The notes under the pieces: generated by a model
Seen by the model: the letters and a program-made list of their open reading frames with translations, nothing else
Told to the model about the DNA's origin: nothing
Databases searched by the model: none
Program-made: the position numbers and the translations under genes
Assembly (NCBI GenBank): GCA_944391135.1
Contig: CALXSL010000010.1
Coordinates: forward strand, 14,225-78,224
Direction of reading: 5' to 3'
Source: an uncultured Opitutales bacterium
GTDB taxonomy: Bacteria > Verrucomicrobiota > Verrucomicrobiia > Opitutales > Intestinicryptomonadaceae
DNA length: 64,000 nt
In this document: positions 33,950 to 61,995 of the stretch, in pieces
How the letters are laid out: every line of letters starts with the position of its first letter
Numbering within the stretch: the first letter of the stretch is position 1

Positions 33950-35107
33950 TTATTTGCTTGTGCGGTTGTTATTCAAAGACGCCTCTATTTTCTCCCAGTT
34001 GGCGTCCTTAGTCATCTTGGCGATAAGGTCGGCGGGAATGTCCTTGAACTCTGTGCCGGGCTGGACGTAGGCCGTTTTCTTGGCGTTTTTGCCGTAGAGA
34101 TAGGCCAGCAATTCGGCTTCGGTGAACTGCCCGAGCGCGAGCAAGTCGGAAAGCTTTTCATGCGGAGTTCTTTCGACATTTGCCGGAGGCGGCGGTGTTT
34201 CGTCTTTCGGAGCTTCCTGTTTCGGTGCCCCGTCGAGCTTTTGGCCGCCCTGCGGCAGATACGGAAGTATTGCTTTGATGTCCGCGTCGAACTCATCCGC
34301 AACGCCTGTCCAGCGGCTTTTGGCGAGGCAGAAAGACGCCGAGTTTGCACATATCACGCGCTTCTTGCCGCCGCTTGCCTTGCCCTTGCCGTTGTCTTTC
34401 GTCTCGACGTAGGTCTTGCGGAACATGAAAAGCAGCGCGTCGCACCACTCCACTACAATGGGGTTGATTTTCTTTGTAAGCTTCGGCTCATAGCGGTCGA
34501 ACGCTATGCCTTCGTCCGGCGGCTCGATTTTGCGCAAAGTCTGGTGCGCGAGGAATACGACGTTCTTTCCTGCGGCGATGCAGGCGTCGGCAAGCTTTAA
34601 CAGCTTCCTGAACTCTTCCTCAAGATAAGTGTAGCCTTTGCCGTAGCCAAATTCCTCGATGCCGCCTTTCTTCCATTTTGCGCAAATATACTCGGCGCAT
34701 TTCATTTCCGCCCAGTCGGCAGTGTCGAGCACGATGGTGTCGAACTCGCACGCCGCGGCTTCGGACATGACGGACAAAAGGCCCTGCCAGTCGTCCACAA
34801 ACACGCGCGGCGTGTCGATGTGCGTTGACGACCTTTCGGCATCGACTATTAGAGCGTTAGGGAACTGCGAGCCGAGCGTAGTTTTGCCGACGCCGCTTTC
34901 CCCGTAGCAGACAATTTTCTGCGGTTCTATGATTTTTCCGGTGATAATATTCATATTGTATAATCCTTGTTTTTGAAGGTTGTAAATTTCCACGGCGCGC
35001 TCATGCGCCTGGGCGTGGGTGAGGTTGTTTTTCGGGTCTTTGGAATCTCCCATGCAAATTGCGCGGAGTTCCAAAAATTCATAATTTGCCGGGGTTTTGT
35101 CCTCCAT
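33950..35107 (-). CDS. AAA_24 / Sak4-like RecA-fold ATPase
   Basis: P-loop IVCYGESGVGKTTLGSQFPNALIVDAE. ATG 35107 lies 2 nt after the upstream stop. An alternative start is ATG 34954. Confidence 0.7.
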   Translation of the reverse strand: MEDKTPANYEFLELRAICMGDSKDPKNNLTHAQAHERAVEIYNLQKQGLYNMNIITGKIIEPQKIVCYGESGVGKTTLGSQFPNALIVDAERSSTHIDTPRVFVDDWQGLLSVMSEAAACEFDTIVLDTADWAEMKCAEYICAKWKKGGIEEFGYGKGYTYLEEEFRKLLKLADACIAAGKNVVFLAHQTLRKIEPPDEGIAFDRYEPKLTKKINPIVVEWCDALLFMFRKTYVETKDNGKGKASGGKKRVICANSASFCLAKSRWTGVADEFDADIKAILPYLPQGGQKLDGAPKQEAPKDETPPPPANVERTPHEKLSDLLALGQFTEAELLAYLYGKNAKKTAYVQPGTEFKDIPADLIAKMTKDANWEKIEASLNNNRTSK

Positions 35108-35109
35108 TG

Positions 35110-35301
35110 TCAGCCGTTTACGTATTCCTCCATCGCAGAGAGCGGCATACAGTTGCACCACATCAGCAGTTCGCCCTCATCTTGTTCCCTGCACAGCTTG
35201 TGGGCAAAAGCCTTTAAAAGCCTGATGTCCGAAGCATCGGACATACTAAGCCTGATTTTTCTTGTTGACTTCCTTGTCTGTTTTTCCTTTTGTGTTTTCA
35301 T
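35110..35301 (-). CDS. hypothetical small protein
   Basis: 63-aa ORF, basic N-terminus. Confidence 0.4.
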   Translation of the reverse strand: MKTQKEKQTRKSTRKIRLSMSDASDIRLLKAFAHKLCREQDEGELLMWCNCMPLSAMEEYVNG

Positions 35302-35329
35302 AATTTGACTTGCTTTTTAGTTTTACTTG

Positions 35330-35365
35330 AGCCGTTCGGTTGCAGCCGAACGGCTTATTTTTTTT
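35330..35365 (+). terminator. Perfect 10-bp hairpin + T8 (terminator-shaped only on plus strand)
   Basis: AGCCGTTCGG-ttgcag-CCGAACGGCT-TATTTTTTTT. On the coding (minus) strand the run is A8 upstream of the hairpin. Confidence 0.35.
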
Positions 35366-35677
35366 CTATGCATCGCCATAGCCATAGCCATCGCCATCGC
35401 CATAGCCATAGCCATCGCCATCGCCATAGCCATCGCCATCGCTAGAGCCATCGCCATAGCCAGAGCCATAGCCATAGCCATAGCCATCGCCAGAGCCATA
35501 GCCATAGCCAGAGCCAGAGCCAGAGCCATAGCCAGAGCCAGAGCCAGAGCCAGAGCCATAGCCATCGCCAGAGCCATCGCCAGAGCCATCTCCATAGCCA
35601 TCGCCATCGCCAGAGCCATAGCCAGAGCCATCGCCAGAGCCATTGCCAGAGCCAATTTTTACGATTTCATCGTCCAT
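35366..35677 (-). CDS. (Gly-X)n low-complexity acidic protein, X = Asp/Ser/Tyr
   Basis: 103-aa ORF: MDDEIVKI, then Gly at every second residue. ATG 35677 lies 19 nt inside the upstream gene. Same strand and packing as the surrounding early operon. Confidence 0.5.
   Translation of the reverse strand: MDDEIVKIGSGNGSGDGSGYGSGDGDGYGDGSGDGSGDGYGSGSGSGSGYGSGSGSGYGYGSGDGYGYGYGSGYGDGSSDGDGYGDGDGYGYGDGDGYGYGDA
35372..35655. repeat. ~47 tandem hexanucleotide units (GGC-GAT/TAT/TCT on minus strand)
   Basis: Uninterrupted period-6 array on the plus strand (gccatc/gccata/gccaga), with only single-base variants. Confidence 0.95.
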
Positions 35678-36045
35678 ACCGGCACGCTTTCTATGCTCTT
35701 TTTAGCGGTCTCTGTTACCCGCAACACCTCTATAACCTCCGTGAGCTCCACCTGCGGAACAGCTACGGGGAACTTGCAACTTGACGGTGTGCTTGTCCCG
35801 CTTACGGCAAGCTCAGAAAGACTTGCGGCGCCTGACCAATACCAGATTCGGCGGGCATTCAAAAGCATCGCCTCTTTGCCATTGCGCTCTTTTAAATATC
35901 CGGCAAATACGCCGGCAGAATATGTGCGCGCAATTACGTACGGCATCCCGTCAATATTTTGCGCTAATGCGGAATTTTCCGCCGACGATTTTTTGACGTA
36001 TTTTTCGCCGTTAACTTCAATCTCGTTCATGTTGATTTCGCTCAT
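35659..36045 (-). CDS. conserved phage protein of unknown function
   Basis: 128 aa. YVIARTYSAGVFAGYLKERNGKEAMLLNARRIWYWSGAASLSELA looks like a globular conserved phage family. Confidence 0.55.
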   Translation of the reverse strand: MSEINMNEIEVNGEKYVKKSSAENSALAQNIDGMPYVIARTYSAGVFAGYLKERNGKEAMLLNARRIWYWSGAASLSELAVSGTSTPSSCKFPVAVPQVELTEVIEVLRVTETAKKSIESVPVWTMKS

Positions 36046-36078
36046 GTTTTTTCCTGTTTTTTTGTTTTAGGTTCAAGT

Positions 36079-36261
36079 TTAATACGTTCCGTATAGGCTT
36101 GGCTCGCTTAGCCACATAAGCAGGCTGTACACCATCATCAGAACAAAGCCGCCTACAATCAGCACCCCGCCAATAAATTCCCAACGGGCCGCACTTACAT
36201 GTTTTCTTGCCTCGGCAGCGCACTCTTCGGGCGTTTTGAAACGTTGAGCGTAGTCAATCAT
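36079..36261 (-). CDS. small membrane protein
   Basis: Internal ATG 36261 (ATGA overlap). 60 aa with one TM (FIGGVLIVGGFVLMMVYSLLMW). Confidence 0.45.
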   Translation of the reverse strand: MIDYAQRFKTPEECAAEARKHVSAARWEFIGGVLIVGGFVLMMVYSLLMWLSEPSLYGTY

Positions 36262-36506
36262 GCCGAGACCCTCTTTTTTCTGACGGCTGCCAAACGCAGG
36301 CATGCCGCACGGCTGTAAAGGTGCGCGCCCTTGCCGCCGGGCTTGATTTCAGGATATTTGCGCGCGATATTAAACAACGCGCGTTTCGACCTAATGCCCA
36401 AAATGCGCATGGCGTCGTCGCTCCTGATGTCGTCCTCGCCGCTTTTGTTTAACGACAGGCAAACCGCGCAGACGATAGCGTCAATATCCTCTTGATCGAG
36501 CGTCAT
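36258..36506 (-). CDS. HTH (excisionase/AlpA-like) protein, first gene of leftward early operon
   Basis: 82 aa. AMRILGIRSKRALFNIARKYPEIK...HLYSRAACLRL. An SD-like GGAGAGGAAA lies upstream. Confidence 0.5.
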   Translation of the reverse strand: MTLDQEDIDAIVCAVCLSLNKSGEDDIRSDDAMRILGIRSKRALFNIARKYPEIKPGGKGAHLYSRAACLRLAAVRKKRVSA

Positions 36507-36598
36507 TCTATTTCCTCTCCGGCTTGTTTTGAGTTGCCCTCTTCTATTGGGGTTTTTAATTGGTTTGATTCTTCACAAATATATGCTTTTGTGTGCTT

Positions 36599-37039
36599 AT
36601 GATTGCCAATATCGCCTTGAATATTAAGGACTTCTTCTTTGAAAATAGTGAAACCATTGCCGCCGGCATTATTACAAGCGTTACGGTTGCCTTTTTTATT
36701 TTCGTCGTAAGGAAATGTTGTATTGGCGTGAAAAAGCGGACAAGAAGGAGCCTCAAATGCAAACAAGCCAATATTGTCAAAAAAATCAGCACCCTCACCT
36801 CCGACGAAATCGGCCTGCTCAAAGCCCTTTGCAAAAGCAGGCTCGTGCAATACCCCTTGAGAGAGAAACAGCTTACTGAAGTCAAGCACCTCCAACGCTT
36901 GGGGTTGATAGAATGCCTCACTCCTGAGACCGAACTCGTAAAGCATGTTGCTACCTACACCATTCCCGCCGAAATTAGAAGCCATGTCGGAAATGCGATT
37001 CTCTATATTTCCAACAAAAATCATGATGATTGCCAGTAG
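36599..37039 (+). CDS. SieB-like superinfection-exclusion membrane protein, paralog A (strand assignment uncertain)
   Basis: TM SETIAAGIITSVTVAFFIFVV, then ISTLTSDEIGLLKALCKSRLVQYPLREKQLTEVKHLQRLGLIE...YTIPAEIRSHV. This matches the recalled SieB C-domain pattern (LSxxExxxLxxF...GII...Y.I.P). An in-register antisense ORF exists. Confidence 0.4.
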   Translation: MIANIALNIKDFFFENSETIAAGIITSVTVAFFIFVVRKCCIGVKKRTRRSLKCKQANIVKKISTLTSDEIGLLKALCKSRLVQYPLREKQLTEVKHLQRLGLIECLTPETELVKHVATYTIPAEIRSHVGNAILYISNKNHDDCQ

Positions 37040-37095
37040 CGTTATTTTTATAAAATCCATAGCTACTTACCCTCCTGTGCGGATTTTGAATTTAT

Positions 37096-37545
37096 TTGCC
37101 TTTCCCTTTTAACCAGAGTTGGCTTTCTTTTGTGATTTCTGAAATTATTGCCATGACCGTTTCGGCGATTATCTCCTCCGGCATTGCTTTCGCAGCTGGC
37201 AGGTGTTGGGAGCGCCGCAGCGCAAATATCTTCCGAAAGAACATTGCGCAAGACATATACGCGTTTATAGATTCCTGCACGGACTACCAAAAAAGCTTCA
37301 TCGCCTATATCGCGAAAGAACCGAAAGGCAGCGTCTTTTCGCCCAGATGCTTTGAGGACAAAACATTCATTTCCTTTGCCGTCAGCCGAGAGTTTCTTGT
37401 ATGCACAAATACGGACTCCAAAATATATGCGCTGACGCCTCTTGTTCTTAACATACTCCAAAACGAAGGCAAAGAGCTTGTAAGCGGCATACCCTGCACC
37501 AAAGAAGAATATCAGGAAAAGAAGAAGAAATTTTATAGTGTCTAA
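37096..37545 (+). CDS. SieB-like membrane protein, paralog B (strand assignment uncertain)
   Basis: TTG start. SEIIAMTVSAIISSGIAFAAGRCW aligns with the paralog A TM. It is followed by FIDSCTDYQKSFIAYIAKEPKG...YALTPLVLNIL and a Lys/Glu tail. Confidence 0.4.
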   Translation: MPFPFNQSWLSFVISEIIAMTVSAIISSGIAFAAGRCWERRSANIFRKNIAQDIYAFIDSCTDYQKSFIAYIAKEPKGSVFSPRCFEDKTFISFAVSREFLVCTNTDSKIYALTPLVLNILQNEGKELVSGIPCTKEEYQEKKKKFYSV

Positions 37546-37650
37546 TGCATCCATAGCTACTTCCCCTCCGGCTTGTTTTCAGGTGTCTTTGTGGTAGGGC
37601 GCCTTGCCTCAACCGCTTGACTTTTAATAGTGCGTTGGAAAAATACATTC

Positions 37651-37989
37651 ATGGAAATCAGCAAATTTGTATCCGAGGTTTTAGTTGGAATTTTCGAGGG
37701 CGTTTCCGACGCCCAAGTCAAAATTGAAGAGAAAGGTGGAATAATTAATCCGCCCGCGCACACCGACACGCGCGGCGAAGTTTTTGCCAATGTCAGCAGT
37801 GCAACCAGCCAGCGCAAATTGTGCGTCGCAGAATTTAACGTCGCCCTTTCGGTCACGAACAACGAACAAAAGGGCGGGAAGATTGGAGTTTTGTTCGCAA
37901 GTCTCGGCGTCGGCGGGAAGCTCGAAAGCAGCGTCGCCGCATCCAATGTTACAAGCGTCAAGTTCTCCGTTCCGTATGTACTGCCTTAG
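37651..37989 (+). CDS. trypco2-like small beta-rich protein
   Basis: 112 aa. MEISKFVSEVLVGIFEGVSDAQVKIEEKGGIINP ... EFNVALSVTNNEQKGGKIGVLFASLGVGGKLESS...VKFSVPYVLP matches the recalled trypsin-co-occurring-domain-2 family pattern. Confidence 0.5.
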   Translation: MEISKFVSEVLVGIFEGVSDAQVKIEEKGGIINPPAHTDTRGEVFANVSSATSQRKLCVAEFNVALSVTNNEQKGGKIGVLFASLGVGGKLESSVAASNVTSVKFSVPYVLP

Positions 37990-38129
37990 CTCATCTTCAT
38001 CGTAGGGCTCCACTAGTTGCGGCGCGGTTGTATCGCGCGCAATATACACATTGCCTTCATTGTCCGCAGATATGCCGATTATCGCATCAAGCAATATAGC
38101 GGCTCGTTTTACGCAGATAAATGTTTTCA

Positions 38130-38318
38130 TTACTTTATTTCCCCTTTTGCGGACTTTACGCATTTAAATGCCTTGCTTTTATTGCAAAAAAAAGAAGATA
38201 CTTTTTCCCTTATCGCTTCCCTGACAATATCAGATTCGCTTAGCTCGCGTTTCTTGGCTATTGCCTTTAAAGCAGCCCTTGTCTCGGGCTTTAATCTGAA
38301 TGTTAATTGTTCTGACAT
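38130..38318 (-). CDS. ribbon-helix-helix (Arc/CopG-like) regulator
   Basis: 62 aa. LTFRLKPETRAALKAIAKKRELSESDIVREAIREKV. Confidence 0.7.
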   Translation of the reverse strand: MSEQLTFRLKPETRAALKAIAKKRELSESDIVREAIREKVSSFFCNKSKAFKCVKSAKGEIK

Positions 38319-38333
38319 GCTTATTCCTTTTTA

Positions 38334-38360
38334 TAAACGCAATTAAATGCCATGCGTTTA
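38334..38360. promoter_or_regulatory. Candidate operator: inverted repeat TAAACGCA-N11-TGCGTTTA
   Basis: Perfect 8-bp arms in the 116-bp AT-rich gap between the divergent RHH genes. TGCAAAA direct repeats at 38379 and 38389 are 10 bp apart. Confidence 0.45.
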
Positions 38361-38434
38361 ATGTGTCAATAAAAATATTGCAAAATAATGCAAAAAATAT
38401 TTGGTTTTAAGAATATTTTTAATTAGAGAAACTT

Positions 38435-38665
38435 ATGAATCCTAAAGGCAGACCAAAAGTTGCCCCCGAAAATAGGGGAGAAAACGTCACCATCAGAATT
38501 TCATCCACATTAAGAAAGAAAGTAGATGAACTTGCTGAAAAAGAAGGAATGGCGGCGTCAGCACTCATTCGAAAAGCAATTCAGGAATACATTAGGAGAC
38601 ATAAGCCTCTCCTTGATAATTTAGATGATGTTCTTGATGCGATTGAGCGCAATCAAGAAAAATAA
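38435..38665 (+). CDS. ribbon-helix-helix (CopG/Mnt-like) regulator, candidate prophage repressor
   Basis: 76 aa. ENVTIRISSTLRKKVDELAEKEGMAASALIRKAIQEYI. Confidence 0.7.
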   Translation: MNPKGRPKVAPENRGENVTIRISSTLRKKVDELAEKEGMAASALIRKAIQEYIRRHKPLLDNLDDVLDAIERNQEK

Positions 38666-38899
38666 AGGCCGTTCATAGCCGTCTGGGATACTTTTTACCC
38701 ATTGCCGGGCCTGCTTCTTGTTTCTGATTTGGTTAAGCTCATCAAATAATAACTTAGCCTCATCAGCAATGAATTTTACATCTATCTTTCCCATATCATT
38801 AGAAGCGGCATGGGAGCGAGCGTGAGTAATTTTATTCGTCATGATATTAGTTTTCAACCCCTGCTGGGGCTGCCTTTTGTGATGTGATTTATAGCTCAT
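38621..38899 (-). CDS. hypothetical protein (second gene of coupled pair)
   Basis: ATG 38899 forms an ATGA overlap with the upstream stop. 92 aa. The 3' end overlaps the convergent RHH gene by 45 nt. Confidence 0.4.
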   Translation of the reverse strand: MSYKSHHKRQPQQGLKTNIMTNKITHARSHAASNDMGKIDVKFIADEAKLLFDELNQIRNKKQARQWVKSIPDGYERPLFFLIALNRIKNII

Positions 38900-39189
38900 T
38901 TCCACTGCCAGAGCTTGTCGGCAGGGTTAAGTCGCCTCACGAACGACTGCGCTCTCCAGAAGAGAGTGGGCGGACGGCTCACGCGGTGCCCGCCAACGGA
39001 AAACTCTTTCATTTTCTGATTCGATATTTTTACCCTGCTCGATAGTTTGTAAACAACAAAATTTTGAACCGCCCCGTAGGGCTTTTGAACACTGAGAAAA
39101 ATTTTTCCGTCCGCCTTTAAAGGCGCATTATAGGCCGATTTAGACAGTATATTAAGCTTAAGCTCCCTTTGGATACGCAGATTATTCAT
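38896..39189 (-). CDS. hypothetical protein (first gene of coupled pair)
   Basis: 97-aa ORF with ATG 39189, AT-rich codon usage and no recognised motif. Confidence 0.45.
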   Translation of the reverse strand: MNNLRIQRELKLNILSKSAYNAPLKADGKIFLSVQKPYGAVQNFVVYKLSSRVKISNQKMKEFSVGGHRVSRPPTLFWRAQSFVRRLNPADKLWQWK

Positions 39190-39377
39190 GCTTTCATTTT
39201 ACTAAAAAACAGATTCCTGCGCAAATCGCCGTGATCGTTGTGGTCGATAATGCTGATTTTTTTTATAAAAATTTCAAACCTACAGAAAATTTAACATATT
39301 AAAATGCATACCTTAGAGGGAATATTTTTGACTTTTTATACTTAAATATCAAAATAATTTCCATAAAAAATGGCATC

Positions 39378-40556
39378 ATGACAAGTAGGCAACGTAATTT
39401 TATAATTTCGCTAGGAGGAACACCAAATCCGGACATGACCGTCAAAGAGGCGTCAGAATTAATTGACGTACTAATTGACAAGAGAGATATCGCAATAGGT
39501 GACATCGCATCCGAGAAACAAATAGCTCATATAATTGCTCTCGGCGGAAAACCAGAATTCCCTATGAGCGTTTACAAAGCATCTCGACTCATCGATTCTC
39601 TCTATCAAAAGAAAATAGACGAAGACGAAACAAACGTCAAAATAAGGGATCGTCGTTCCGCAGAAAGAGCAAAAAAAAGAGCAGAAGAAAAAAGAATTGA
39701 AGAAGAGTTTTTGAACTTCAAAGTCAAAATCTCTGACGAGGACATTGATAATATAATATCCCAAGTTCCAGACTACCACCGCAAGGCGACACCGATTCAG
39801 AAAGAATCAATCACAAGATATTTAGGAGAATCGGAAAGAACATCGGCATTATTGACAAAGTTGAATTCCAAGCAGGCCAAAGAACTAATCAAAAAGCTTG
39901 AAGAACTGCGCTATATTCAATCGGGAGAAGCGGAACGCGATAAGCTTGAAGCACAACGCGAAGCGGAAGAGGAAGCCCGCGAAGCCGAAGAAGCGCTATT
40001 AGAAGAAATAGACGACGCATTTTATATAGATAAAAGCAATCCGGAATGGGAAAAGCTTCCGCCAACAGCGGAACAGGAATGTTTTTTGCGGTTTAAGAAA
40101 AAATATTCCGAAGATGACAGTCGCGGCGATGCTTTAAAAAAAATAATTGAAATCAGAAGACGTGAATTGAAAAGAGATCCCCTTTCGGAACTTAACATGG
40201 GGCCGCTTCGTCCATGGGCGAAAATAAAATGGCTGCATGCAAGTCTTCTTATGGACGAATTAATGATGGGAGGGTTTGATTATGAAGGCGATTACAAATG
40301 GGGCGATATTGACACTGTCTTAGCTGAATTGAACGATGTTTACGGCAACTGGGAAGCTGAGACAAAATACCGCGAATTTCTTGCGGAAAATTCAGAATTG
40401 GAAGAACCGGAAATGTTGAGGATACTAATAGAAGGGTATAAGAAAAAAATCCGAGGGAAAAAAGTAAAAAAAACGAATGCAAATGAAGCTTCCGGTTGTT
40501 TATCCATGCTTATTATTGCAGTTGCTCCATTCTTTATTTTTCAAATTATCGCTTAA
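39378..40556 (+). CDS. tail-anchored membrane protein with triplicated N-terminal helical module and acidic coiled coil
   Basis: 392 aa. Repeats at residues 3-33 and 45-76 (QxxFIxSLGGxP...MxVxxASxLIDxL) plus a third degenerate copy. EAQREAEEEAREAEEALLEEI. C-terminal TM CLSMLIIAVAPFFIFQIIA. Confidence 0.6.
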   Translation: MTSRQRNFIISLGGTPNPDMTVKEASELIDVLIDKRDIAIGDIASEKQIAHIIALGGKPEFPMSVYKASRLIDSLYQKKIDEDETNVKIRDRRSAERAKKRAEEKRIEEEFLNFKVKISDEDIDNIISQVPDYHRKATPIQKESITRYLGESERTSALLTKLNSKQAKELIKKLEELRYIQSGEAERDKLEAQREAEEEAREAEEALLEEIDDAFYIDKSNPEWEKLPPTAEQECFLRFKKKYSEDDSRGDALKKIIEIRRRELKRDPLSELNMGPLRPWAKIKWLHASLLMDELMMGGFDYEGDYKWGDIDTVLAELNDVYGNWEAETKYREFLAENSELEEPEMLRILIEGYKKKIRGKKVKKTNANEASGCLSMLIIAVAPFFIFQIIA

Positions 40557-41718
40557 TAAGCATCGAATCCGGCACAATGCTGAAATAGGCCTTGGAATCT
40601 TCCTCCGTTGCCACGGCCTTGTAAAATTTTTTGTAGACCTTGTAATCGTGCCCAAGTATTTCGACGGACTTTTCCACGCCAAAGACGTGATACGCGTATG
40701 AGGCAAAGCTGTGGCGCAATACATCCTGAGACATGGAATACGGAAGCGTTTTCTTGCTTTGAATCCATTGCTGATAAACGTTTTTGGTTGTGGTGCGTTT
40801 GCCAACAGGCCGCAACATGTTCATTTCGGAGGGGTAAATCGCCCTCCATCCCTTTATCGGCTCAAGCCACGGCCAAATATTCGCCAGCCCGGTTATAATC
40901 CGCGTTTCCCTAGTTTTTGCCACAGACGCGCGCACAATAATCCGTTTGCGCTCAAAATCAATGTCCGAAAACTTGAGGCAGTCGCTTTTTGCGTTTTTAT
41001 CCGACTTGTCGTAAATGAGTTCCTCGGGGCGAATCCCCGCAAAAGCCATAAGGGCATACAAGGGCTTAAATTCCGGACGCATCGCATTGATATTCGCCTC
41101 GGTTTCCTTGGGGGTCATGATTTGAATTTCAGCCTTATCACCAAGTATTTTGGGGATTTTCACTTTTTTAAACACATTTTCGGCGGCATAACCGGAATCG
41201 CATAAAAAAGACCAAAAAGCGCGCAAGGCGCGTTTTGCCTGCGGCTTGCTCCTAACAGCATCCATATACATTTGCGCGCTCTCAGCGGAGAAATGCGACG
41301 CTTCTTTGAAGCCGCAAGCCTTGCACCATTTTAAGAACCTTTTTATATGATCCTCATAAAAGCCATAAGTACGCGGCCGAACCTTTTTTGCTTCAAGAAA
41401 GGCAAGAAATTTGGCTTGCGCATCAGGGAATAAGAGAGTCGGCCGCTGCGAGTCCTTTAAGAATTTTTGGAACATGGGTACAGCATCATGCAAAGAAAGT
41501 CCATATTCTGCACACAACTTTTTTATTTTTGCAACATCGCCCCTCTCGACGCCGTCGATTTGAAGCTCCGACGGCATCTTTTTTTCCGCCTTGTTGGAGA
41601 GCTCGAATTCTTCAGCCTCGGTACGCGTGGCAAAAGTCGCCGAAATGATTTTGCCGTCTATGTTCTTGCAGCGCACCAAAAATGGCTTTGACTTGCGCTT
41701 AATTTTTTGGATACTCAT
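40546..41718 (-). CDS. int: tyrosine recombinase / phage integrase
   Basis: ATG 41718 (track TTG 41733). The catalytic region is VLRHSFASYAYH...ILGHDYKVYKKFY. Adjacent to attR. Confidence 0.85.
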   Translation of the reverse strand: MSIQKIKRKSKPFLVRCKNIDGKIISATFATRTEAEEFELSNKAEKKMPSELQIDGVERGDVAKIKKLCAEYGLSLHDAVPMFQKFLKDSQRPTLLFPDAQAKFLAFLEAKKVRPRTYGFYEDHIKRFLKWCKACGFKEASHFSAESAQMYMDAVRSKPQAKRALRAFWSFLCDSGYAAENVFKKVKIPKILGDKAEIQIMTPKETEANINAMRPEFKPLYALMAFAGIRPEELIYDKSDKNAKSDCLKFSDIDFERKRIIVRASVAKTRETRIITGLANIWPWLEPIKGWRAIYPSEMNMLRPVGKRTTTKNVYQQWIQSKKTLPYSMSQDVLRHSFASYAYHVFGVEKSVEILGHDYKVYKKFYKAVATEEDSKAYFSIVPDSMLIKR

Positions 41719-41764
41719 TTTTCCGAAAATCAAAAGGTTCTTTTAAGGAATATTACGGCAAAAA

Positions 41765-41904: not shown

Positions 41905-41943
41905 AGCTCGGGTGGCGGAATGGTAGACGCAGCGGACTTAAAA
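41905..41943 (+). repeat. attR: 39-bp direct repeat (inside intact tRNA-Leu)
   Basis: Identical to 7968-8006. Confidence 0.9.
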
Positions 41944-41990
41944 TCCGCCGGTGATGAGCCGTACGGGTTCGAGTCCCGTCCCGAGCACCA
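41906..41990 (+). tRNA. tRNA-Leu (anticodon UAA), type II with long variable arm, encoded CCA
   Basis: Acceptor stem GCTCGGG/CCCGAGC, anticodon stem-loop GCGGA-CTTAAAA-TCCGC, T arm GGGTTCGAGTCCC, 3' ACCA. Confidence 0.9.
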
Positions 41991-42034: not shown

Positions 42035-42214
42035 GATAAACAAAGAAGTTGAGCGGGCTTAGTGAGTCGCAATTCATTCATGCTTAATCGCAATTTTGCT
42101 TGAAAAATTCGCGATAAGTTGCGCATGATTGAGTAAAGACACATGCAAGGTCAACGGACAAGATCGGGGCATCCTAAACTATTGCGTTGAGGTTAAAACT
42201 AAATCAACAAACCA

Positions 42215-43279
42215 ATGAAAATAACTAATGTATTGGCAATTTTGGTACTGGTTACCGGTATTTGCGCCACCGGCTACGCCAAAGACGGCTCCGTGACAAC
42301 TCCCAAAACCCAAAAAAAGGTTCCCGTAGTGAAAGAGACCGGTTTTGCCCGCGGCGCCGACGTAAGCTGGCTCACACAGATGGAATTTGAAGGCCGCAAG
42401 TTCTACACTCCTGGCGAAGACCGCAAGGAAATGGAGTGCATGGAGCTGCTGCGCGACTACTGCGGTGTGAATGCCATTCGACTGCGCGTGTGGGTCAACC
42501 CCACTGAAGAACCCTGGAACAGTATTGATGACGTTGTTGTGAAAGCGCGCCGCGCCGAGCGTCTGGGCCTGCGCATTATGATCGACTTCCATTTCTCCGA
42601 CACCTGGGCCGATCCTGGCAAGCAGATAATCCCCAAAGATTGGGAAAACCTCAAATTTGACGCCCTCAAAAAGGCGGTGGCAGCCCACGTGAACAAAACC
42701 CTCATCGCCCTGAAAAAAGCCGGCGCGACGCCCGAATGGGTTCAAATTGGCAATGAAACTACCCACGGAATGTTGAAGCCTGCGGGCTCGGTGGACAACC
42801 CATCGCAGCTTGTCGAACTCAACAATGCCGCCTACGCCGCCGCAAAAAAAATCTTCCCCGACGTCTTGACGATTGTGCATCTCGATTGTGGCAATAACCC
42901 CTGGATCTACAACCGCATGTTCGACTTCTTCGAGCAGTTTGGCGGCAAATACGATATGATAGGCATGTCGCTCTATCCCGACATGATTGTGCGCAGAGGC
43001 GAAGCCGACAGTTGGCAAAAGGTGGCTGACGACTGCATTGCCAATATCAACGCCTTGAAGGAAAAATATGGCAAACCCGTGATGATTTGCGAGATCGGCA
43101 TGCCTTACGACCAGCCCGAAGCCTGCCGAGATCTCATCACCAAAATGATGTCGGCCGACGTGAAAGGCATTTTTTATTGGGAACCGCAGACCTCCGGCAA
43201 CTACTACGGATATACCCTTGGCGCCTTCGACAACGACGCTCCCACCGCTGCTCTCGATGCATTCAAAAAGCACAAATAA
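42215..43279 (+). CDS. arabinogalactan endo-beta-1,4-galactanase (GH53), secreted
   Basis: 354 aa with a signal peptide. GADVSWLTQME, NAIRLRVWVNP, MIDFHFSDTWADPGKQ, IGNE. Confidence 0.85.
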   Translation: MKITNVLAILVLVTGICATGYAKDGSVTTPKTQKKVPVVKETGFARGADVSWLTQMEFEGRKFYTPGEDRKEMECMELLRDYCGVNAIRLRVWVNPTEEPWNSIDDVVVKARRAERLGLRIMIDFHFSDTWADPGKQIIPKDWENLKFDALKKAVAAHVNKTLIALKKAGATPEWVQIGNETTHGMLKPAGSVDNPSQLVELNNAAYAAAKKIFPDVLTIVHLDCGNNPWIYNRMFDFFEQFGGKYDMIGMSLYPDMIVRRGEADSWQKVADDCIANINALKEKYGKPVMICEIGMPYDQPEACRDLITKMMSADVKGIFYWEPQTSGNYYGYTLGAFDNDAPTAALDAFKKHK

Positions 43280-43360
43280 TCTTATACGGCGAAGAAAGCT
43301 CATTCTTCAAAAAATACAGTCAAATAAGCGTTAATCAAAACGTCCTGAGCACCAATTTAA

Positions 43361-46542: not shown

Positions 46543-47595
46543 ATGTTCAATCCATTAAAAATTTCAAATTTAACAATCAGCAAGCCAATAGTACAGGGCG
46601 GAATGGGTGTGGGCATTTCACTGTCCGGACTTGCGTCGGCCGTCGCAAACGAAGGCGGCTGCGGCGTAATATCCTGCGCGGGACTTGGCCTGATACACCA
46701 TAACCTGTCGCCAAACTACCTTGAGGCGTCCATTCTGGGGCTCAAGGAGGAAATACGCAAGGCGCGCGAAAAGACCCGGGGCGTAATAGGCGTAAACATC
46801 ATGCAGGCCATGAGCAATTTTTCGGACATGGTAAAAACCGCGATTTCCGAAAAGGCCGACATAATTTTCGTCGGGGCGGGCCTTCCCATGGACTTGCCAG
46901 GCTATATAACCGAAGGGTGCGCCACAAAGCTCGCCCCCATCGTTTCTTCCGCAAAGGCTTTTAAGGTTATCGCCCAAAAATGGATGAGCAAATACCGCTA
47001 CGCGCCCGACGCGGTGGTGTTGGAAGGCCCCAAAGCCGGAGGGCACCTCGGCTTTAAGGGAGACCAGATTTTTGACGAGAATTTTTCCCTGGAGAAAATA
47101 CTGCCCGAAGTTTTGAATGAAACGGAAGCCTTTGAGGAAAAATACGGCAGGCATGTTCCCGTAATTGCGGGCGGCGGCCTTTCTTCGGCGGAGGACATAA
47201 AAAAGATTCTGGACATGGGGGCCGAAGCGGTGCAGATGGGAAGCGTTTTTGTCCCCACCGAGGAATGCGACGCCGACACGGCTTTCAAGCAGGCATATTT
47301 GGATTCCGCGCAATCGGATATAACTATAATAAACAGTCCTGTCGGCATGCCGGGGCGCGCCTTGCTGAACGACTTCGTCCGGCAGGCAAAATCGGGCAGC
47401 AAAAAGCCGAAGATGTGCTCTTACAAATGCCTCAAATCGTGCGATTACACAAAGGCGGACTATTGCATAATGAAAGCCCTGTATTTCGCCTTCAAAGGCA
47501 GGCTGGAAAACGGATTTTCTTTCATAGGGGCAAACGGATACAAGGCAAACAGGATAGAAACCGTAAAATCCGTATTCGAAAGGCTGTTTAAATAA
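46543..47595 (+). CDS. nitronate monooxygenase-family flavin oxidoreductase (FabK-like)
   Basis: 350 aa. PIVQGGMGVGIS, AGGHLG, IAGGGL. Confidence 0.65.
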   Translation: MFNPLKISNLTISKPIVQGGMGVGISLSGLASAVANEGGCGVISCAGLGLIHHNLSPNYLEASILGLKEEIRKAREKTRGVIGVNIMQAMSNFSDMVKTAISEKADIIFVGAGLPMDLPGYITEGCATKLAPIVSSAKAFKVIAQKWMSKYRYAPDAVVLEGPKAGGHLGFKGDQIFDENFSLEKILPEVLNETEAFEEKYGRHVPVIAGGGLSSAEDIKKILDMGAEAVQMGSVFVPTEECDADTAFKQAYLDSAQSDITIINSPVGMPGRALLNDFVRQAKSGSKKPKMCSYKCLKSCDYTKADYCIMKALYFAFKGRLENGFSFIGANGYKANRIETVKSVFERLFK

Positions 47596-47663
47596 GCAAC
47601 CTTCGCTTTTCAATATCGCAGCAGTAATGAAAAACGCAAATTAAGCGGCATTTTAACAAAGCG

Positions 47664-47737: not shown

Positions 47738-48841
47738 CTATGCTTTAACAAGCTCGTATTCAATCGTTCCGAGACCGAGTTTCTGGGCGTGCTCCAGCGC
47801 AGACATCCAGTTTGTGTCGGGCGAGACGTCGGCAAAGTGGTCTCCGTGCGAGTGGCCGTGTTTTTCCAATATGCTCCCCGCCACGGCGGGCTGCGCGTTG
47901 ACGGCGTCGGCGCAGGCCTTGTCTATGGCGACCGGGTCGAAAGACGCGAACATGCCTACGTCCGGCACAATCGGGATGTCATTTTCGGCATGGCAGTCGC
48001 AGAAGGGCGAAACGTCTATGGCGAGGCTTATGTGGAAGCTCGGGCGGCCGTGCAGAACGGCCTTGGTGTATTCGGCCATCTTGCGGTTCATGACGTCGTT
48101 GGCCTCGTCGAACGGGGGCTGAACGGCGTCCTTGGGGCACACGCCTATGCACCTGCCGCATCCGACGCACTTGAGGTGGTCTATGCTGGCCTTGCCGTCC
48201 TTGATGACAGGGGCGTCGTGCGCGCAGATTTTCCTGCATTTGCCGCAGCCTATGCAAAGCCTCGTCACGACGTGCGGCTTGCCCGCGCTGTGCATTTCCA
48301 TCTTGCCCGCGCGCGAACCCGATCCCATGCCGATGTTCTTGATGGCTCCGCCGAAGCCCGCCATCTCGTGCCCTTTGAAGTGCGAAAGAGAAATCACAAT
48401 GTCGGCGTCCATGATGGCGGAGCCAATCTTGGCCTCTTTCACGTACTCGCCGCCCTCGACGGGCACGAGGCGTTCGTCAAGGCCCTTGATGCCGTCGGCG
48501 ATAATCGTGTGAACGCCCGTTGCGAACGGGTTGTAGCCGTTCGCATATGCGCTGTCGAGGTGGTCGAGCGCGTTCTTGCGCCCGCCCACATACAGGGTGT
48601 TGCAGTCGGTCACGAAAGGCCTGCCACCAAGCCTTTTGACGTAGTCGCACACGGTGCGCGCATAATTGGGCCGCAAAAACGCAAGATTGCCCGGCTCGCC
48701 GAAGTGCAACTTTACGGCCACGAATTTGTCCTTGAAATCGATGCTTTCAAAACCGGCTTTCTTCATGAGGCGCTCCAGCTTTTTCAGCAGGTTCGCCTCC
48801 GCCGTCGCATGCATGTCGGTGAAGTATACTTTTGAACTCAT
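47738..48841 (-). CDS. DUF362 domain protein with two 4Fe-4S ferredoxin motifs
   Basis: Internal ATG 48841 (MSSKVYFTD...). CIGCGKCRKIC and CVGCGRCIGVCP. Confidence 0.75.
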   Translation of the reverse strand: MSSKVYFTDMHATAEANLLKKLERLMKKAGFESIDFKDKFVAVKLHFGEPGNLAFLRPNYARTVCDYVKRLGGRPFVTDCNTLYVGGRKNALDHLDSAYANGYNPFATGVHTIIADGIKGLDERLVPVEGGEYVKEAKIGSAIMDADIVISLSHFKGHEMAGFGGAIKNIGMGSGSRAGKMEMHSAGKPHVVTRLCIGCGKCRKICAHDAPVIKDGKASIDHLKCVGCGRCIGVCPKDAVQPPFDEANDVMNRKMAEYTKAVLHGRPSFHISLAIDVSPFCDCHAENDIPIVPDVGMFASFDPVAIDKACADAVNAQPAVAGSILEKHGHSHGDHFADVSPDTNWMSALEHAQKLGLGTIEYELVKA

Positions 48842-48989
48842 AGTTATAGCAATAGCAGTAAGCGGCCGCCAAATGGCGGCTGATAACAAAAGAGTTGCGC
48901 TTCACATGCGCGCAATCAACAAAAAAATGACCGCAATTGAAGAAAAACCGTTTAACCGATGCGCTTCCGGCAGCACGGCACAAACCGAG

Positions 48990-59211: not shown

Positions 59212-59493
59212 GGAGGTCGAACGTTTTTTGACAGGTGTTTTTGGCAAATTCTTCCGCGTTTTCGCGGCGATTGCTTTGACTTCAAAACGGGGAATGCACT
59301 TCAGGTGCCATCTCCGCCTTAAAGCCTTCGCAAGCCTTGCGAATTCCGCAAAATAATTAAGCCAAAAAGCGCTTAGGGCAATGAGAATGAAATTCGAACT
59401 AACCACCAGTCAAAAACCGTTCGGCCCCGGAAAAATTTTTACGATATAATTTGTTAATAGAGGCGCAATGCGCGCCGGAAAGAACTATAAAAG

Positions 59494-60516
59494 ATGAAGC
59501 TTAAAGCTGGAATAGTGGGCGCGTCGGGGTACGCGGGAATAGAACTTGTCAGGCTGCTTGCCAAGCATCCGGACGTAGAGCTTGCATGCGTTACGTCGCG
59601 CAGTCTTGCCGGCACGAAAGTTGCCGACAATATGCCCGCCCTGCGCCACCTGCTGGCCGACGACATGAAGTTCACGGAATCGTCTCCCGAAGCGCAGGCC
59701 AAGATGGACGTGGACGTGTGGTTTCTGGCCCTGCCCCACGGCGCGGCGGCGGAATACGCCAAGCCGCTCATCGACGCGGGAAAGACAGTCATAGACCTTT
59801 CGGCCGACTTCCGGCTGAACTCGCTGGACATTTACAAGTCTTACTACAAGGAAGACCACCGCGCGCCCGAGCTTCTGAAGCTCGGCAAATACGTAATCGC
59901 GGAACTCTTTCCCGTGTCGAAGGGCGACAAGCTGATCGCATGCGCGGGCTGCTACCCGACTAGCATACTCACGCCGCTCATCCCGCTCCTGCGCGAGGGG
60001 GCCGTGGGAACCGAAGGCATCGTGATAAACAGCTACAGCGGGGTTTCCGGAGCGGGCAAAAAGGCCGACCTCAACCTCATTTACTGCGAGCGCAACGAGA
60101 GCGCGAAAGCTTACGGCCTCGTGTCGCACAGGCATCTTTCGGAAATCGAGGAGGAGCTGGGTATAGCCGCAGGCAAAGACGTCGTGGTGCAGTTCAACCC
60201 GCACCTGGCGCCCATGACGCGCGGCATACACACCACGATCACCCTGCCCGCCAAGGTTGAGGGCGTGGAAAAGATTTACGAAGTCTGGAACAAATACTAC
60301 GCCGGCAGGCCCTTTGTTAAAATCCTCAAGGGCTACCCCGACACCCAGCATGTAAGCAACACGAACCGCTGCGACATTTCGGCGTTCTACGACCCGCGCA
60401 CGAAGAACATAATCATATGCTCGGCCATCGACAACCTCATCAAAGGGGCGAGCGGCCAGGCGGTGCAGATTATGAACCTCATGTACGGCTTTGACGAAAC
60501 CGCCGGGCTTGCGTAA
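59494..60516 (+). CDS. argC: N-acetyl-gamma-glutamyl-phosphate reductase
   Basis: 340 aa. GASGYAGIELVRLL, and the catalytic Cys context ACAGCYPT. Confidence 0.9.
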   Translation: MKLKAGIVGASGYAGIELVRLLAKHPDVELACVTSRSLAGTKVADNMPALRHLLADDMKFTESSPEAQAKMDVDVWFLALPHGAAAEYAKPLIDAGKTVIDLSADFRLNSLDIYKSYYKEDHRAPELLKLGKYVIAELFPVSKGDKLIACAGCYPTSILTPLIPLLREGAVGTEGIVINSYSGVSGAGKKADLNLIYCERNESAKAYGLVSHRHLSEIEEELGIAAGKDVVVQFNPHLAPMTRGIHTTITLPAKVEGVEKIYEVWNKYYAGRPFVKILKGYPDTQHVSNTNRCDISAFYDPRTKNIIICSAIDNLIKGASGQAVQIMNLMYGFDETAGLA

Positions 60517-60756
60517 AATGCAAAGCGCAAAAGAGAAAAATCTTTCACTTTATTGCGCGCGCAACGCGCGCTCTATTGGCGCGTCAAAATGCGCCTCAGG
60601 CGAGGCTTTGAAATAGTGCGGCGGTGGGAGCGTACTTACGTACGTGACCAGTGGCGCACTGTTTCAAAACGAAGCATCAGGCGTATTTTCACGCGCCCCA
60701 CCCCCAAATAAATGATTGATATATACGAATCTTAAGACATTATATTTCCTTTTAAA

Positions 60757-61995
60757 ATGAAGAAGAACTTTACAGTCCATACCACCGAAGACGTCCCCGG
60801 GCTGGGGATGGTAGGCGGATTCAAAGTTGCGGGCGCCGCGTGCGACATCCGCAATAAAAACGACCTCAAAAGGCTCGACGTAGCCCTCATAGTTTCCGAG
60901 ACCCCTGCGACGGGCGCGGGCGTGTTCACCACGAACGACGTCAAGGCGGCCCCCGTGCTCACGGACATGGCGCATCTTTCTCGCTCCGAAAAAATAAAGG
61001 CTATAGTGGCCAACAGCGGCAACGCCAACGCCTGCAACGGCGAACGCGGCATGGCGGACGCCATGGCCATGTGCAAGGCCGTCGCCGAACTTGTAGGCTC
61101 CAAGCCCGAGCAGGTGCTCGTGTGCTCCACGGGCCGCATCGGCGAATTCCTGCCCATGCAAAAAATCGAAAAGGGCGTAAAAGACGCCTTTGAAAAGCTT
61201 TCCGACTCCGAAGAGCAGAGCCGCAACGCGGCGGCCGCCATACTCACTTCAGACACGCGCCCCAAGACGGTGCTCGTGAAAGTCGAGTTCGCCGGCAAGA
61301 CCATAACGCTCGCCGGAATGGGCAAGGGCGCGGGCATGATAGAGCCCAATATGGCGACAATGCTCGCGTTCATAGCGTGCGACGCCTCCATCTCGCAGAA
61401 GCTTCTGAAGGAATGCCTGCGCTTTGCAGCGAACAAAACTTTCAACCGCATTACGATAGACGGCGACATGAGCACCAACGACACCGTCCTTTGCCTGTGC
61501 AACGGCTCCAGCGGCGTTGACGTTGACGAATCCGACGCGGCGGCGATTGAGGCCTTCAAGGCCGGGCTGCTCGAAGTTTGCAGGATTCTCGCGCGCAAAA
61601 TGGTAAGCGACGGCGAAAAAATCACGAAGGTGATCGAAGTTAAAGTAACGGGCGCGCGCGACGAGGAACAGGCGGAGAAAATCTGCCGCGCAATAGGCAA
61701 CTCGCTTCTTGTGAAATCGTCGTGGTTCGGCGGCGACCCCAACTGGGGGCGTCTCGCGGACGCCGCAGGCTACGCGCGCACAGGCCTCGACTTCTCAAAG
61801 TTCGACCTTTTTTACAACGACACTGCCGTGCTCAAGGGCGGCGAGCAGGTCGTGGAAAACAAGGACGAATGGAGGCGCATAGTGTCCAACAAGACATTTA
61901 CAATCACGATAAACCTGAACCAGGGCTCGGCCGAAGAAGTTATCCTTTCGACAGACCTCACCGACGGCTACGTGAATTTCAACAAGGGCGAGTAA
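60757..61995 (+). CDS. argJ: bifunctional glutamate N-acetyltransferase / amino-acid acetyltransferase
   Basis: 412 aa. GKGAGMIEPNMATMLAFIACDA (autoprocessing ATML site). Confidence 0.9.
   Translation: MKKNFTVHTTEDVPGLGMVGGFKVAGAACDIRNKNDLKRLDVALIVSETPATGAGVFTTNDVKAAPVLTDMAHLSRSEKIKAIVANSGNANACNGERGMADAMAMCKAVAELVGSKPEQVLVCSTGRIGEFLPMQKIEKGVKDAFEKLSDSEEQSRNAAAAILTSDTRPKTVLVKVEFAGKTITLAGMGKGAGMIEPNMATMLAFIACDASISQKLLKECLRFAANKTFNRITIDGDMSTNDTVLCLCNGSSGVDVDESDAAAIEAFKAGLLEVCRILARKMVSDGEKITKVIEVKVTGARDEEQAEKICRAIGNSLLVKSSWFGGDPNWGRLADAAGYARTGLDFSKFDLFYNDTAVLKGGEQVVENKDEWRRIVSNKTFTITINLNQGSAEEVILSTDLTDGYVNFNKGE

Follow-up and report, generated by a model that had tools for sequence, protein, structure and literature searches.

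A candidate prophage exclusion gene of the Pepco/Trypco2 family and its conserved antisense partner in an uncultured Opitutales bacterium

The domains Trypco1 and Trypco2 were defined as neighbors of trypsin-like peptidases in NTPase conflict systems (PMC7159879), and it was only recently established that Pepco/Trypco2 is a death effector that forms pores once licensed by a protease. A Pepco representative of 117 residues preassembles into sodium dodecyl sulfate-resistant 9-10-mer beta-barrels with amphipathic basal helices, and it becomes a lethal, membrane-permeabilizing pore once an Avs4-linked protease cuts off a C-terminal tail of ~2 kDa after Ile97 (bioRxiv 10.1101/2025.11.14.688446). 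A second point of reference is sieB, which in both lambda and P22 is a plus-strand gene inside the minus-strand PL operon. Here we analyze the end of a prophage in a stretch of 64,000 nucleotides, the window, from an uncultured Opitutales bacterium (assembly GCA_944391135.1, contig CALXSL010000010.1, positions 14,225 to 78,224), in which a small plus-strand gene with Pepco/Trypco2 relatives, called C, lies antisense to the end of m149, an open reading frame (ORF) of the early operon. An earlier note, written from the sequence alone, had described the region as a plus-strand island of three genes, two SieB-like paralogs (A and B) followed by a Trypco2-like gene (C). The explanation we favor, with a probability of roughly 0.5, is that the conserved unit is C together with m149, and that C encodes a membrane effector made in the lysogen and silenced when the early genes are expressed.

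The case for C begins with its family. In an exhaustive HMMER search, 1.84 billion representatives yielded 1103 homologs at E ≤ 1e-3 (29 at ≤ 1e-10; best E down to 1.6e-27), all of them proteins of ~110-120 residues that align with C end to end, with the consensus MELKEF..ETL.QI..GV..AQ....G..INP...EFDVALT....GGIGV....G.GG...V.RIKFSVP..LP. Substitutions also follow the reading frame of C: at codon positions 1/2/3 we counted 19/14/40 between the window and L004, a related phage contig that carries the locus at about 70-80% protein identity, and 39/35/65 and 48/37/74 between the window and two further contigs, L022 and L029. Between the window and L004, C is 79% identical and m149, where it overlaps C, 60%. 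This difference and the third-position bias indicate that selection in the overlap acts on C. By these comparative measures C is a real plus-strand gene. That it is a chance ORF is ruled out by the 1103 full-length homologs and the third-position substitutions.

Profile comparison further places C in the Pepco/Trypco2 family, of which it is predicted to be a stand-alone member. Pfam Trypco2 (PF19631) aligns to C over profile positions 17-75 of 78 at E 0.004, with a score of 17.5-17.8 bits that is under the gathering score of 24.2, and it matches 18 of 60 aligned C homologs at E ≤ 0.01 (best 5.2e-7). With these matches and the 1103 homologs, the earlier description of the third ORF as Trypco2-like held up. 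The AlphaFold2 model of C, built from 86 sequences (pLDDT 75.6), has a helix at residues 3-26 and strands at 36-38, 44-46, 55-67, and 100-110. Set against the published description of Pepco, C agrees with it in being a small protein, 112 residues long, with an N-terminal amphipathic helix and then beta strands. In the monomer the Gly-rich residues 73-98 are unstructured, which, going by the model, is the expected look of a barrel-forming hairpin before assembly.

The ends of these proteins are informative as well. C and its nearest relatives finish in VKFSVPY(V/K/C/I)LP, and in the wider family VPI.LP precedes a further 0-30 residues. Nor is there a protease at hand: the motif GDSG[GSA] is found in none of the six frames of the 64-kb window, in keeping with the earlier remark that no trypsin-like protease (GDSGG) lies nearby, and the immediate neighbors of C are RHH regulators, a 392-residue ORF, and an integrase. 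At 24 other loci with C homologs we noticed no protease within ~2.5-3 kb, few of those neighbors having been scanned with profiles. Since C has neither an inhibitory tail nor a linked protease, its trigger must differ from that of a canonical Pepco.

Several observations weigh against our reading of C, the subthreshold Pfam score among them. C has Tyr at the position of the wider family's conserved Ile, the residue after which SsPepco is cleaved, and only three residues beyond it, and with these features and no protease, neither activation nor toxicity of C can be inferred from SsPepco, the Pepco of Streptomyces subrutilus. Foldseek comparison of the C model with the PDB and a PDB sequence search with the C profile returned no match. 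Neither the seven ORFs, whichever their strand, nor the 392-residue neighbor matched a model in PADLOC-DB v2. The call of a promoter for C (see below) is not enriched over shuffles in the scan's own control; moreover, Shine-Dalgarno sequences are missing from most flanking host genes, so that promoters of the sigma-70 type may not be what this host uses. Finally, this genome has many full-length antisense shadow ORFs, so that the openness of the C-terminal part of m149 is, by itself, weak evidence for it.

The argument for m149 as a gene comes instead from selection on its N-terminal extension and from translational coupling. The first 47 codons of m149 (37990-38130) reach beyond the stop of C. 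Over this extension the window and L022 are 52% identical in nucleotides and 21 of the 47 residues are identical, a number reached by 0 of 5000 column shuffles; other, non-mirror frames give 8-12 identical residues. The ratio of nonsynonymous to synonymous differences, pN/pS, is 0.53 (with pS saturated, at 0.77), compared to ~1 in the other two frames of the strand, and the m149 frame is the sole open one in the extension in both the window and L022. The m149 start is joined to the stop of the upstream RHH(-) gene by a TAATG overlap, and the coupling to the upstream gene is seen in L004 as well. Thus, m149, or at least its 47-codon N terminus, is on this comparative evidence a real gene under purifying selection. 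The view that m149 is only a shadow ORF is ruled out by selection on the extension and by the conserved coupling.

A search with m149 found only four close relatives, in contrast to the 1103 homologs of C. Every C-like gene of this clade, in the window, L004 (two copies), L022, and L029, is covered by a homologous antisense ORF of 148-162 residues (E 4e-63 to 1e-4). In the five copies of this clade, the only stop in the antisense frame of C is the terminator of the m149-like ORF itself, near the 5′ end of C, apart from one extra stop near the start of the second C copy of L004; the 20 more distant C homologs that we tabulated have 1-13 antisense stops. The gene order in L022 is RHH(+), RHH(-), m149-like, C, and then a KilA-N gene, with the RHH(+) homolog at the same position as in the window; in L029 it is XRE(+), HTH(-), a 169-residue gene, m149-like, and C. 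The pair therefore recurs in four phage lineages, directly downstream of the cro-like gene, and, as judged from these genomes, we regard C and m149 as overlapping antisense genes that are conserved as a pair beside the immunity switch. The second C/m149 copy of L004 (10729-11085 on the minus strand and 10579-11067 on the plus strand) is strongly diverged, sharing ~31-34% identity with both C and the first copy in L004. This second copy lies in the slot that A and B occupy in the window and starts with the ribosome-binding cassette of m163, the minus-strand ORF opposite B.

How might such a pair work? The candidate promoter of C (Table 1) has a -10-like hexamer that ends 5-6 nucleotides before the ATG of C in the window and in L004, and less clearly so in L022; in L029, TTGATA-17-TCTAAT ends 6 nucleotides before the C-like ATG. 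C has no Shine-Dalgarno sequence, and this, with the -10-like hexamer so close to the ATG, suggests that the C mRNA is leaderless. The perfect palindrome GCATTTAAATGC and its near-copy GCAATTAAATGC look like operator sites of the immunity switch. We imagine that, as long as repression keeps the early operon silent in the lysogen, C would be transcribed from its own promoter, perhaps without a leader, and that the C protein would permeabilize membranes, as an effector of exclusion or of abortive infection. Once the prophage is induced, early transcription running toward C and translation of m149 would shut C off. A and B, or the ORFs antisense to them (m185 and m163), are a lineage-specific insertion between C/m149 and the next early gene.

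The strict conservation of the sense/antisense arrangement in four lineages, and the fact that C is a small member of a membrane-active family, could also be accommodated if C were a toxin that serves addiction or timing, in the manner of a type I toxin-antitoxin system or a holin, and that the antisense early transcript or m149 neutralizes. Such a device would stabilize the prophage or help lysis. We consider this improbable: distant C homologs have no antisense ORF, so the family does not need one, and C lies far from the structural and lysis genes.

Beyond the phages with m149, C homologs are stand-alone genes in metagenome-assembled genomes (MAGs) of many phyla and in 14 viral contigs, often near contig ends. 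At 6 of the 24 loci (L013, L014, L023, L028, L033, and L035) the neighboring, co-oriented gene encodes a Peptidase_S24 cI/LexA-like repressor, which in L028, L033, and L013 is immediately adjacent to the C homolog. Genes of the C family beside a repressor fit expression in the lysogen, making an exclusion or abortive-infection role plausible. The presence of an S24 repressor next to these genes may simply reflect their place in a lysogeny operon; alternatively, the S24 peptidase could itself be the partner of this "peptidase co-occurring" family. One can envision that the large protease-less Pepco clade may be a form of repressor-linked prophage defense, in which the adjacent Peptidase_S24 cI-like repressor, or a protease of the invading phage, might be the activating peptidase.

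The same features of C lend themselves to a counterdefense role, in which a tail-less Pepco mimic would co-assemble with a host Pepco-protease system, or titrate its protease, and so block abortive infection. C has no cleavable tail, no conserved Ile, and no protease partner, the family is phage-borne in the 14 viral contigs, and Pepco forms hetero-oligomerizable 9-10-mers with which C might co-assemble. Yet C is not placed as an early antidefense gene should be, since it is encoded opposite the early lytic operon and next to or behind repressor genes; many of the bacterial MAG loci with homologs have no obvious Pepco-protease system nearby, and none was seen in the host part of the window. 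A counterdefense function for C thus seems to us very unlikely.

Table 1. Positions of the genes, candidate ORFs, and sites discussed in the text, numbered from the first letter of the window
Feature	Position	Strand	Remarks
Gene C	37630/37651-37989	+	112 residues; Pepco/Trypco2 family; C-terminal end ...VKFSVPYVLP
m149	37681-38130	-	149-residue early-operon ORF; last ~100 codons exact antisense of C
Candidate promoter of C	37617..37644	+	TTGACT-16-TGgAAAAAT (consensus scan); identical in L004
ORF A (candidate)	36593/36599-37039	+	146 residues; transmembrane residues 19-37, basic linker, possible winged-helix-like C-domain
ORF B (candidate)	37132..37545	+	137 residues from GTG 37132, or 149 residues from TTG 37096; N-terminal transmembrane segment
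m185	36503-37060	-	185 residues; antisense to A; pipeline-called gene
m163	37063-37554	-	163 residues; antisense to B; pipeline-called gene
m82	36258-36506	-	Next early gene; single-coding control (codon ratio +23; variant substitutions 2/3/8)
RHH(-) gene	38130-38318	-	CopG/Arc-like; heads leftward early operon, cro-like position; RHH_1 E 3.1e-6; PHROG CopG-like repressor 2.2e-6
RHH(+) gene	38435-38665	+	Candidate prophage repressor, divergent from early operon; RHH_1 E 1.4e-6; PHROG "transcriptional repressor" 5e-8
Perfect palindrome GCATTTAAATGC	38160-38171		Inside 3′ end of RHH(-) gene, just upstream of m149 start
Operator-like near-palindrome GCAATTAAATGC	38339-38350		Divergent RHH/RHH intergenic region; direct repeat family D2
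Integrase, prophage end	40546-41733	-	Assigned from sequence motif R..H..RHSF.S, not from profile match
tRNA-Leu	41906-41990		Adjoins integrase

The setting is the end of a prophage whose minus-strand structural and early genes extend to 36506. The three plus ORFs are present in the ORF list at the coordinates first given for them, the island is AT-richer than the structural genes as had been said (GC 0.46-0.47 compared to 0.55-0.60), and the candidate repressor does lie on the same strand, with RHH_1 and PHROG matches (Table 1). What the first description missed is coding capacity on the opposite strand: m185, m163, and m149 cover the same DNA, each in the codon-for-codon antisense frame (position 2 facing position 2), and the 86-bp gap proposed at 36507-36592 falls within the 3′ end of m185. 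All three minus ORFs were present on exact look-up among ~15 billion predicted proteins, and A, B, and C, with any start tried, had no entry there. For C the reason is that pipelines call the longer antisense ORF. Nor is the plus-strand trio conserved as a module, given that related phages retain C and its antisense partner without A and B. Searches with PADLOC, NCBIfam, and PHROGs returned nothing for any of the six ORFs (A, B, C, m185, m163, and m149), a blastn comparison of 35000-41000 with a phage collection gave no match, and PDB sequence searches with A, B, and m149 found nothing.

For the A/B part of the island, composition suggests that the plus frames A and B are coding, and ribosome-binding sites suggest that the minus frames m185 and m163 are translated. 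Codon usage was scored as a log-likelihood ratio of the sense over the exact antisense frame, trained on 32 genes of the window. Control chunks of 140 codons had a mean of +36.8, and every correctly stranded chunk exceeded +10 (the two negative values belong to an ORF that had been read on the wrong strand). A scored +15.0, B +21 to +24, and the verified gene C +13.0. The plus ORF frame ranks first of six in the A, B, and C regions and the exact antisense second, with a margin between them of around half the value in single-coding controls. Shuffling of mononucleotides was too noisy to serve as a test of the ratio.

On the minus strand, Shine-Dalgarno-like motifs stand 6-12 nucleotides before each start: AGGAGG 10 nucleotides upstream of the m185 ATG, GGAGG 10 nucleotides upstream of the m163 ATG, and a weaker GGGGAAA before m149. 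Neither A nor B is preceded by one. The m185 start is 2 nucleotides past the m163 stop, and m185 and m82 share an ATGA overlap. A start cassette, ATCCATAGCTACTT(A/C)CCCTCC (direct repeat families D3 and D4), is repeated, and the ribosome-binding cassette of m163 is common to the start of the m149 paralog in L004. When metagenomes were scanned for the conserved ribosome-binding cassette AAAACAAGCCGGAGGGGAA, the 8 hits were all unrelated and due to chance.

Natural variation bears on the same question. Three of seven variant contigs (L001, L002, and L007) carry a 372-bp deletion (~36582-36951) that is in frame for m185, where it leaves a 61-residue ORF with the m82 overlap intact. Three sets of observations give A and B no backing as genes; the last two favor neither strand. 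First, the same deletion removes the A start and about two thirds of A. Second, substitutions pooled over seven close variants fall at codon positions 1/2/3 as 4/1/5 in A and 7/5/7 in B, with 2/3/8 in the control m82, so that these variants show no frame preference for A or B, the counts being too few. Third, A has no homolog among 5.8 billion proteins and none by tblastn against phages at E ≤ 10; for B there was no distant homolog, the only close relative being partial (P0164, a 90%-identical fragment). No relative of m163 was found in viral contigs or outside its own lineage, and 80 viral loci with the neighboring DUF6948 gene held no relative of A, B, C, m149, m163, or m185. In L008 a nonsense codon at 37121 falls at codon 9 of B, upstream of 37132, and the GTG at 37132 is ATG in five variants. 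Because the TTG start is cut off from the rest of B in that variant, B, if real, more likely begins at 37132.

Two further observations concern the A/B segment. A direct repeat, ATGATTGCCA(A/G)TA(T/G)CG, occurs at the A start (36599-36614) and at the A stop (37026-37041), 427 bp apart. A 960-bp metagenome contig (L006, 1-960) is 97.6% identical to the B/m163 region (window 37050-37382) and then continues into a dnaB-like helicase ORF; the switch at window 37382 reflects either chimeric assembly or another genomic arrangement.

If only the minus strand codes here, m163 and m185 would be ordinary early genes for small membrane-anchored proteins and A and B would be shadow ORFs. The AGGAGG and GGAGG motifs, starts 2-4 nucleotides from the preceding stop, the ATGA overlap with m82, the repeated start cassette, the presence of m163 and m185 but not of A and B in the protein collection, and a deletion that keeps both frame and coupling all agree with this, as do the lack of Shine-Dalgarno sequences and homologs for A and B in a genome where shadow ORFs are common. 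Set against it are the codon composition, by which the plus frames rank first of six and the minus frames score -15 and -21 where controls exceed +10, the low-complexity tails of m163 and m185, and the substitutions among variants, which show no purifying selection in the minus frames. In addition, the pipelines and ribosome-binding evidence of this kind also preferred m149 to C, and C is nevertheless real. On balance we think it somewhat unlikely that the minus strand alone codes in this part.

Elsewhere in the window, full-length antisense shadow ORFs of near-equal length lie opposite host-side genes at 42179-43303, 46543-47613, 47738-48889, 59485-60516, and 60732-61995. For the first of these (minus strand), codon usage favors the shorter plus-strand ORF at 42215-43279 as the real one, and strand miscalls may be common in this genome.

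Is A, then, a SieB-like protein? The earlier note had seen the SieB C-domain in A and had called A and B SieB-like paralogs. One transmembrane-like segment is indeed present in each (Kyte-Doolittle 19-residue maximum of 2.38 in A and 1.92 in B). The paralogy fell away, as A and B gave no mutual BLASTP alignment at E ≤ 100; similarity between m163 and m185 is likewise insignificant. Pfam SieB (PF14163) matched neither A nor B at E ≤ 1, with the lambda SieB positive control at 1e-29, and B showed no resemblance to SieB in pairwise or profile comparisons. For A, a marginal similarity is what is left of the proposal: BLASTP against lambda SieB gives E 0.046 over 92 residues, and a SieB profile limited to three sequences (SieB proteins in the phage database are nearly all >80% identical) gives an hhalign P of 0.0067 at a probability of 5.7%, over "ISTLTSDEIGLLKALCKS..YPLREKQLTEVKHLQRLGLIE". 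The hidden Markov model score of A against SieB, 8.4 bits, was reached by 3 of 3000 shuffles. Comparison of A with P22 SieB alone was not significant, and m163 against P22 gives an equally "significant" chance score. An AlphaFold2 model of A from its single sequence was uninformative (pLDDT 41.5). From these scores, A could be a remote relative of SieB.

Neither A nor B is found in related phages with C and m149, and in L004 a second C/m149 copy takes their slot, which makes them a lineage-specific insertion and not partners of C. This bears on the proposal with which the locus was first described, namely, that A, B, and C form a lysogen-expressed operon and all three minus ORFs are annotation artifacts. 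The codon ratios favor the plus frames, C is verified, A and B have transmembrane segments followed by basic residues, and A has its weak similarity to SieB. Against this, the N-terminal extension of m149 is under purifying selection and conserved in four lineages, coupled ribosome-binding sites precede every minus start, A and B are missing from related phages with C, three variants carry the deletion of A, and homologs are lacking for both ORFs. Coding on the plus strand only is, in our estimation, quite unlikely.

A bolder version would have the whole 1.6-kb island coding on both strands, in the pairs A/m185, B/m163, and C/m149. Reading of the plus strand in the lysogen would yield a Pepco-like pore former and membrane proteins that would serve exclusion, and the induced phage would turn to the minus strand, a convergent switch that would silence the toxin in the lytic cycle. 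We mention it as a speculative extension and think it rather unlikely.

Two other elements of the prophage deserve mention. Between the RHH(+) gene and the integrase, the plus-strand ORF at 39378-40556 (392 residues) combines repeated "GG(T/K)P..M.V.EAS.LID.L" units with a long central part that is rich in E and K and resembles a coiled coil, and it has a C-terminal transmembrane segment. It has no Pfam, NCBIfam, or PADLOC match and is a candidate for a further lysogen-expressed membrane protein. Inside the early operon, 35371-35654 is a 284-bp array of ~47 CATAGC hexamers (reported period 12 and 18), open in three frames, as (GY/GD/GS)n of 103 residues and (AM/AL)n of 110 residues on the minus strand and (IA/RA)n on the plus strand.

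Returning to C and m149 as the conserved unit, a large, protease-less, nearly tail-less clade in prophage immunity regions raises the questions of how a pore former is controlled there and whether it is used for exclusion. C is also a concrete annotation blind spot, a family-supported gene hidden antisense to a longer called ORF. Antisense overlapping pairs with comparative support on both strands are rare, and C/m149 is a clean, mutationally separable candidate for a functional pair of this kind in a phage, since stops can be placed in the frame of C or of m149 while remaining synonymous in the other.

Among described systems, C can be compared most closely with Pepco proteins such as SsPepco, which is found with an Avs4 trypsin-like protease. 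Both are of ~110-120 residues, with an N-terminal amphipathic helix and then beta strands with a Gly-rich hairpin; they are related in sequence at the profile level, and both occur in conflict-related genomic settings. Unlike Pepco, whose neighboring trypsin- or caspase-like protease is usually fused to a sensor, C has no such protease beside it, nor a STAND or vWA-MoxR sensor; unlike SsPepco, with which it was compared by description only, it has no inhibitory tail of ~2 kDa. Its position, in a prophage immunity region, antisense to the early operon and overlapped by another gene, is also unlike that of Pepco.

That position is closer to what is seen in the lambdoid phages. Like C, sieB of lambda and P22 lies on the opposite strand inside a leftward early operon, by the immunity region, and in P22 it is transcribed from a promoter of its own and is active in the lysogen, although the likeness to C is one of position only. 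In protein features it is A that can be set beside SieB, both having an N-terminal transmembrane segment, a basic linker, and a 46-residue stretch "LT.E...L..L......KQ.....L..LG(I/V)"; A differs from the SieB family in having no Pfam SieB match and in being dispensable in natural variants. The minus strand under sieB has no annotated ORF in lambda or P22, whereas in the window it is fully open and provided with ribosome-binding sites. The rexAB genes of lambda, accessory genes that the lysogen expresses, offer another parallel, being linked to the repressor as C-family genes are beside co-oriented Peptidase_S24 cI-like repressors in other prophages; RexB, like Pepco-family proteins, is a membrane-permeabilizing effector, with no sequence relationship to C. 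In the window, unlike rexAB, C is not cotranscribed with the repressor: it sits across the divergent promoter and is convergent with the early operon.

Finally, the overlap can be compared with antisense overlaps and shadow ORFs elsewhere, with which it shares the frame, position 2 facing position 2, in which long shadow ORFs typically arise. In contrast to plain shadow ORFs, the two genes are each independently supported, C by its family and its third codon positions and m149 by selection on its N terminus and by coupling, and the C/m149 pair moves between phages as a unit.

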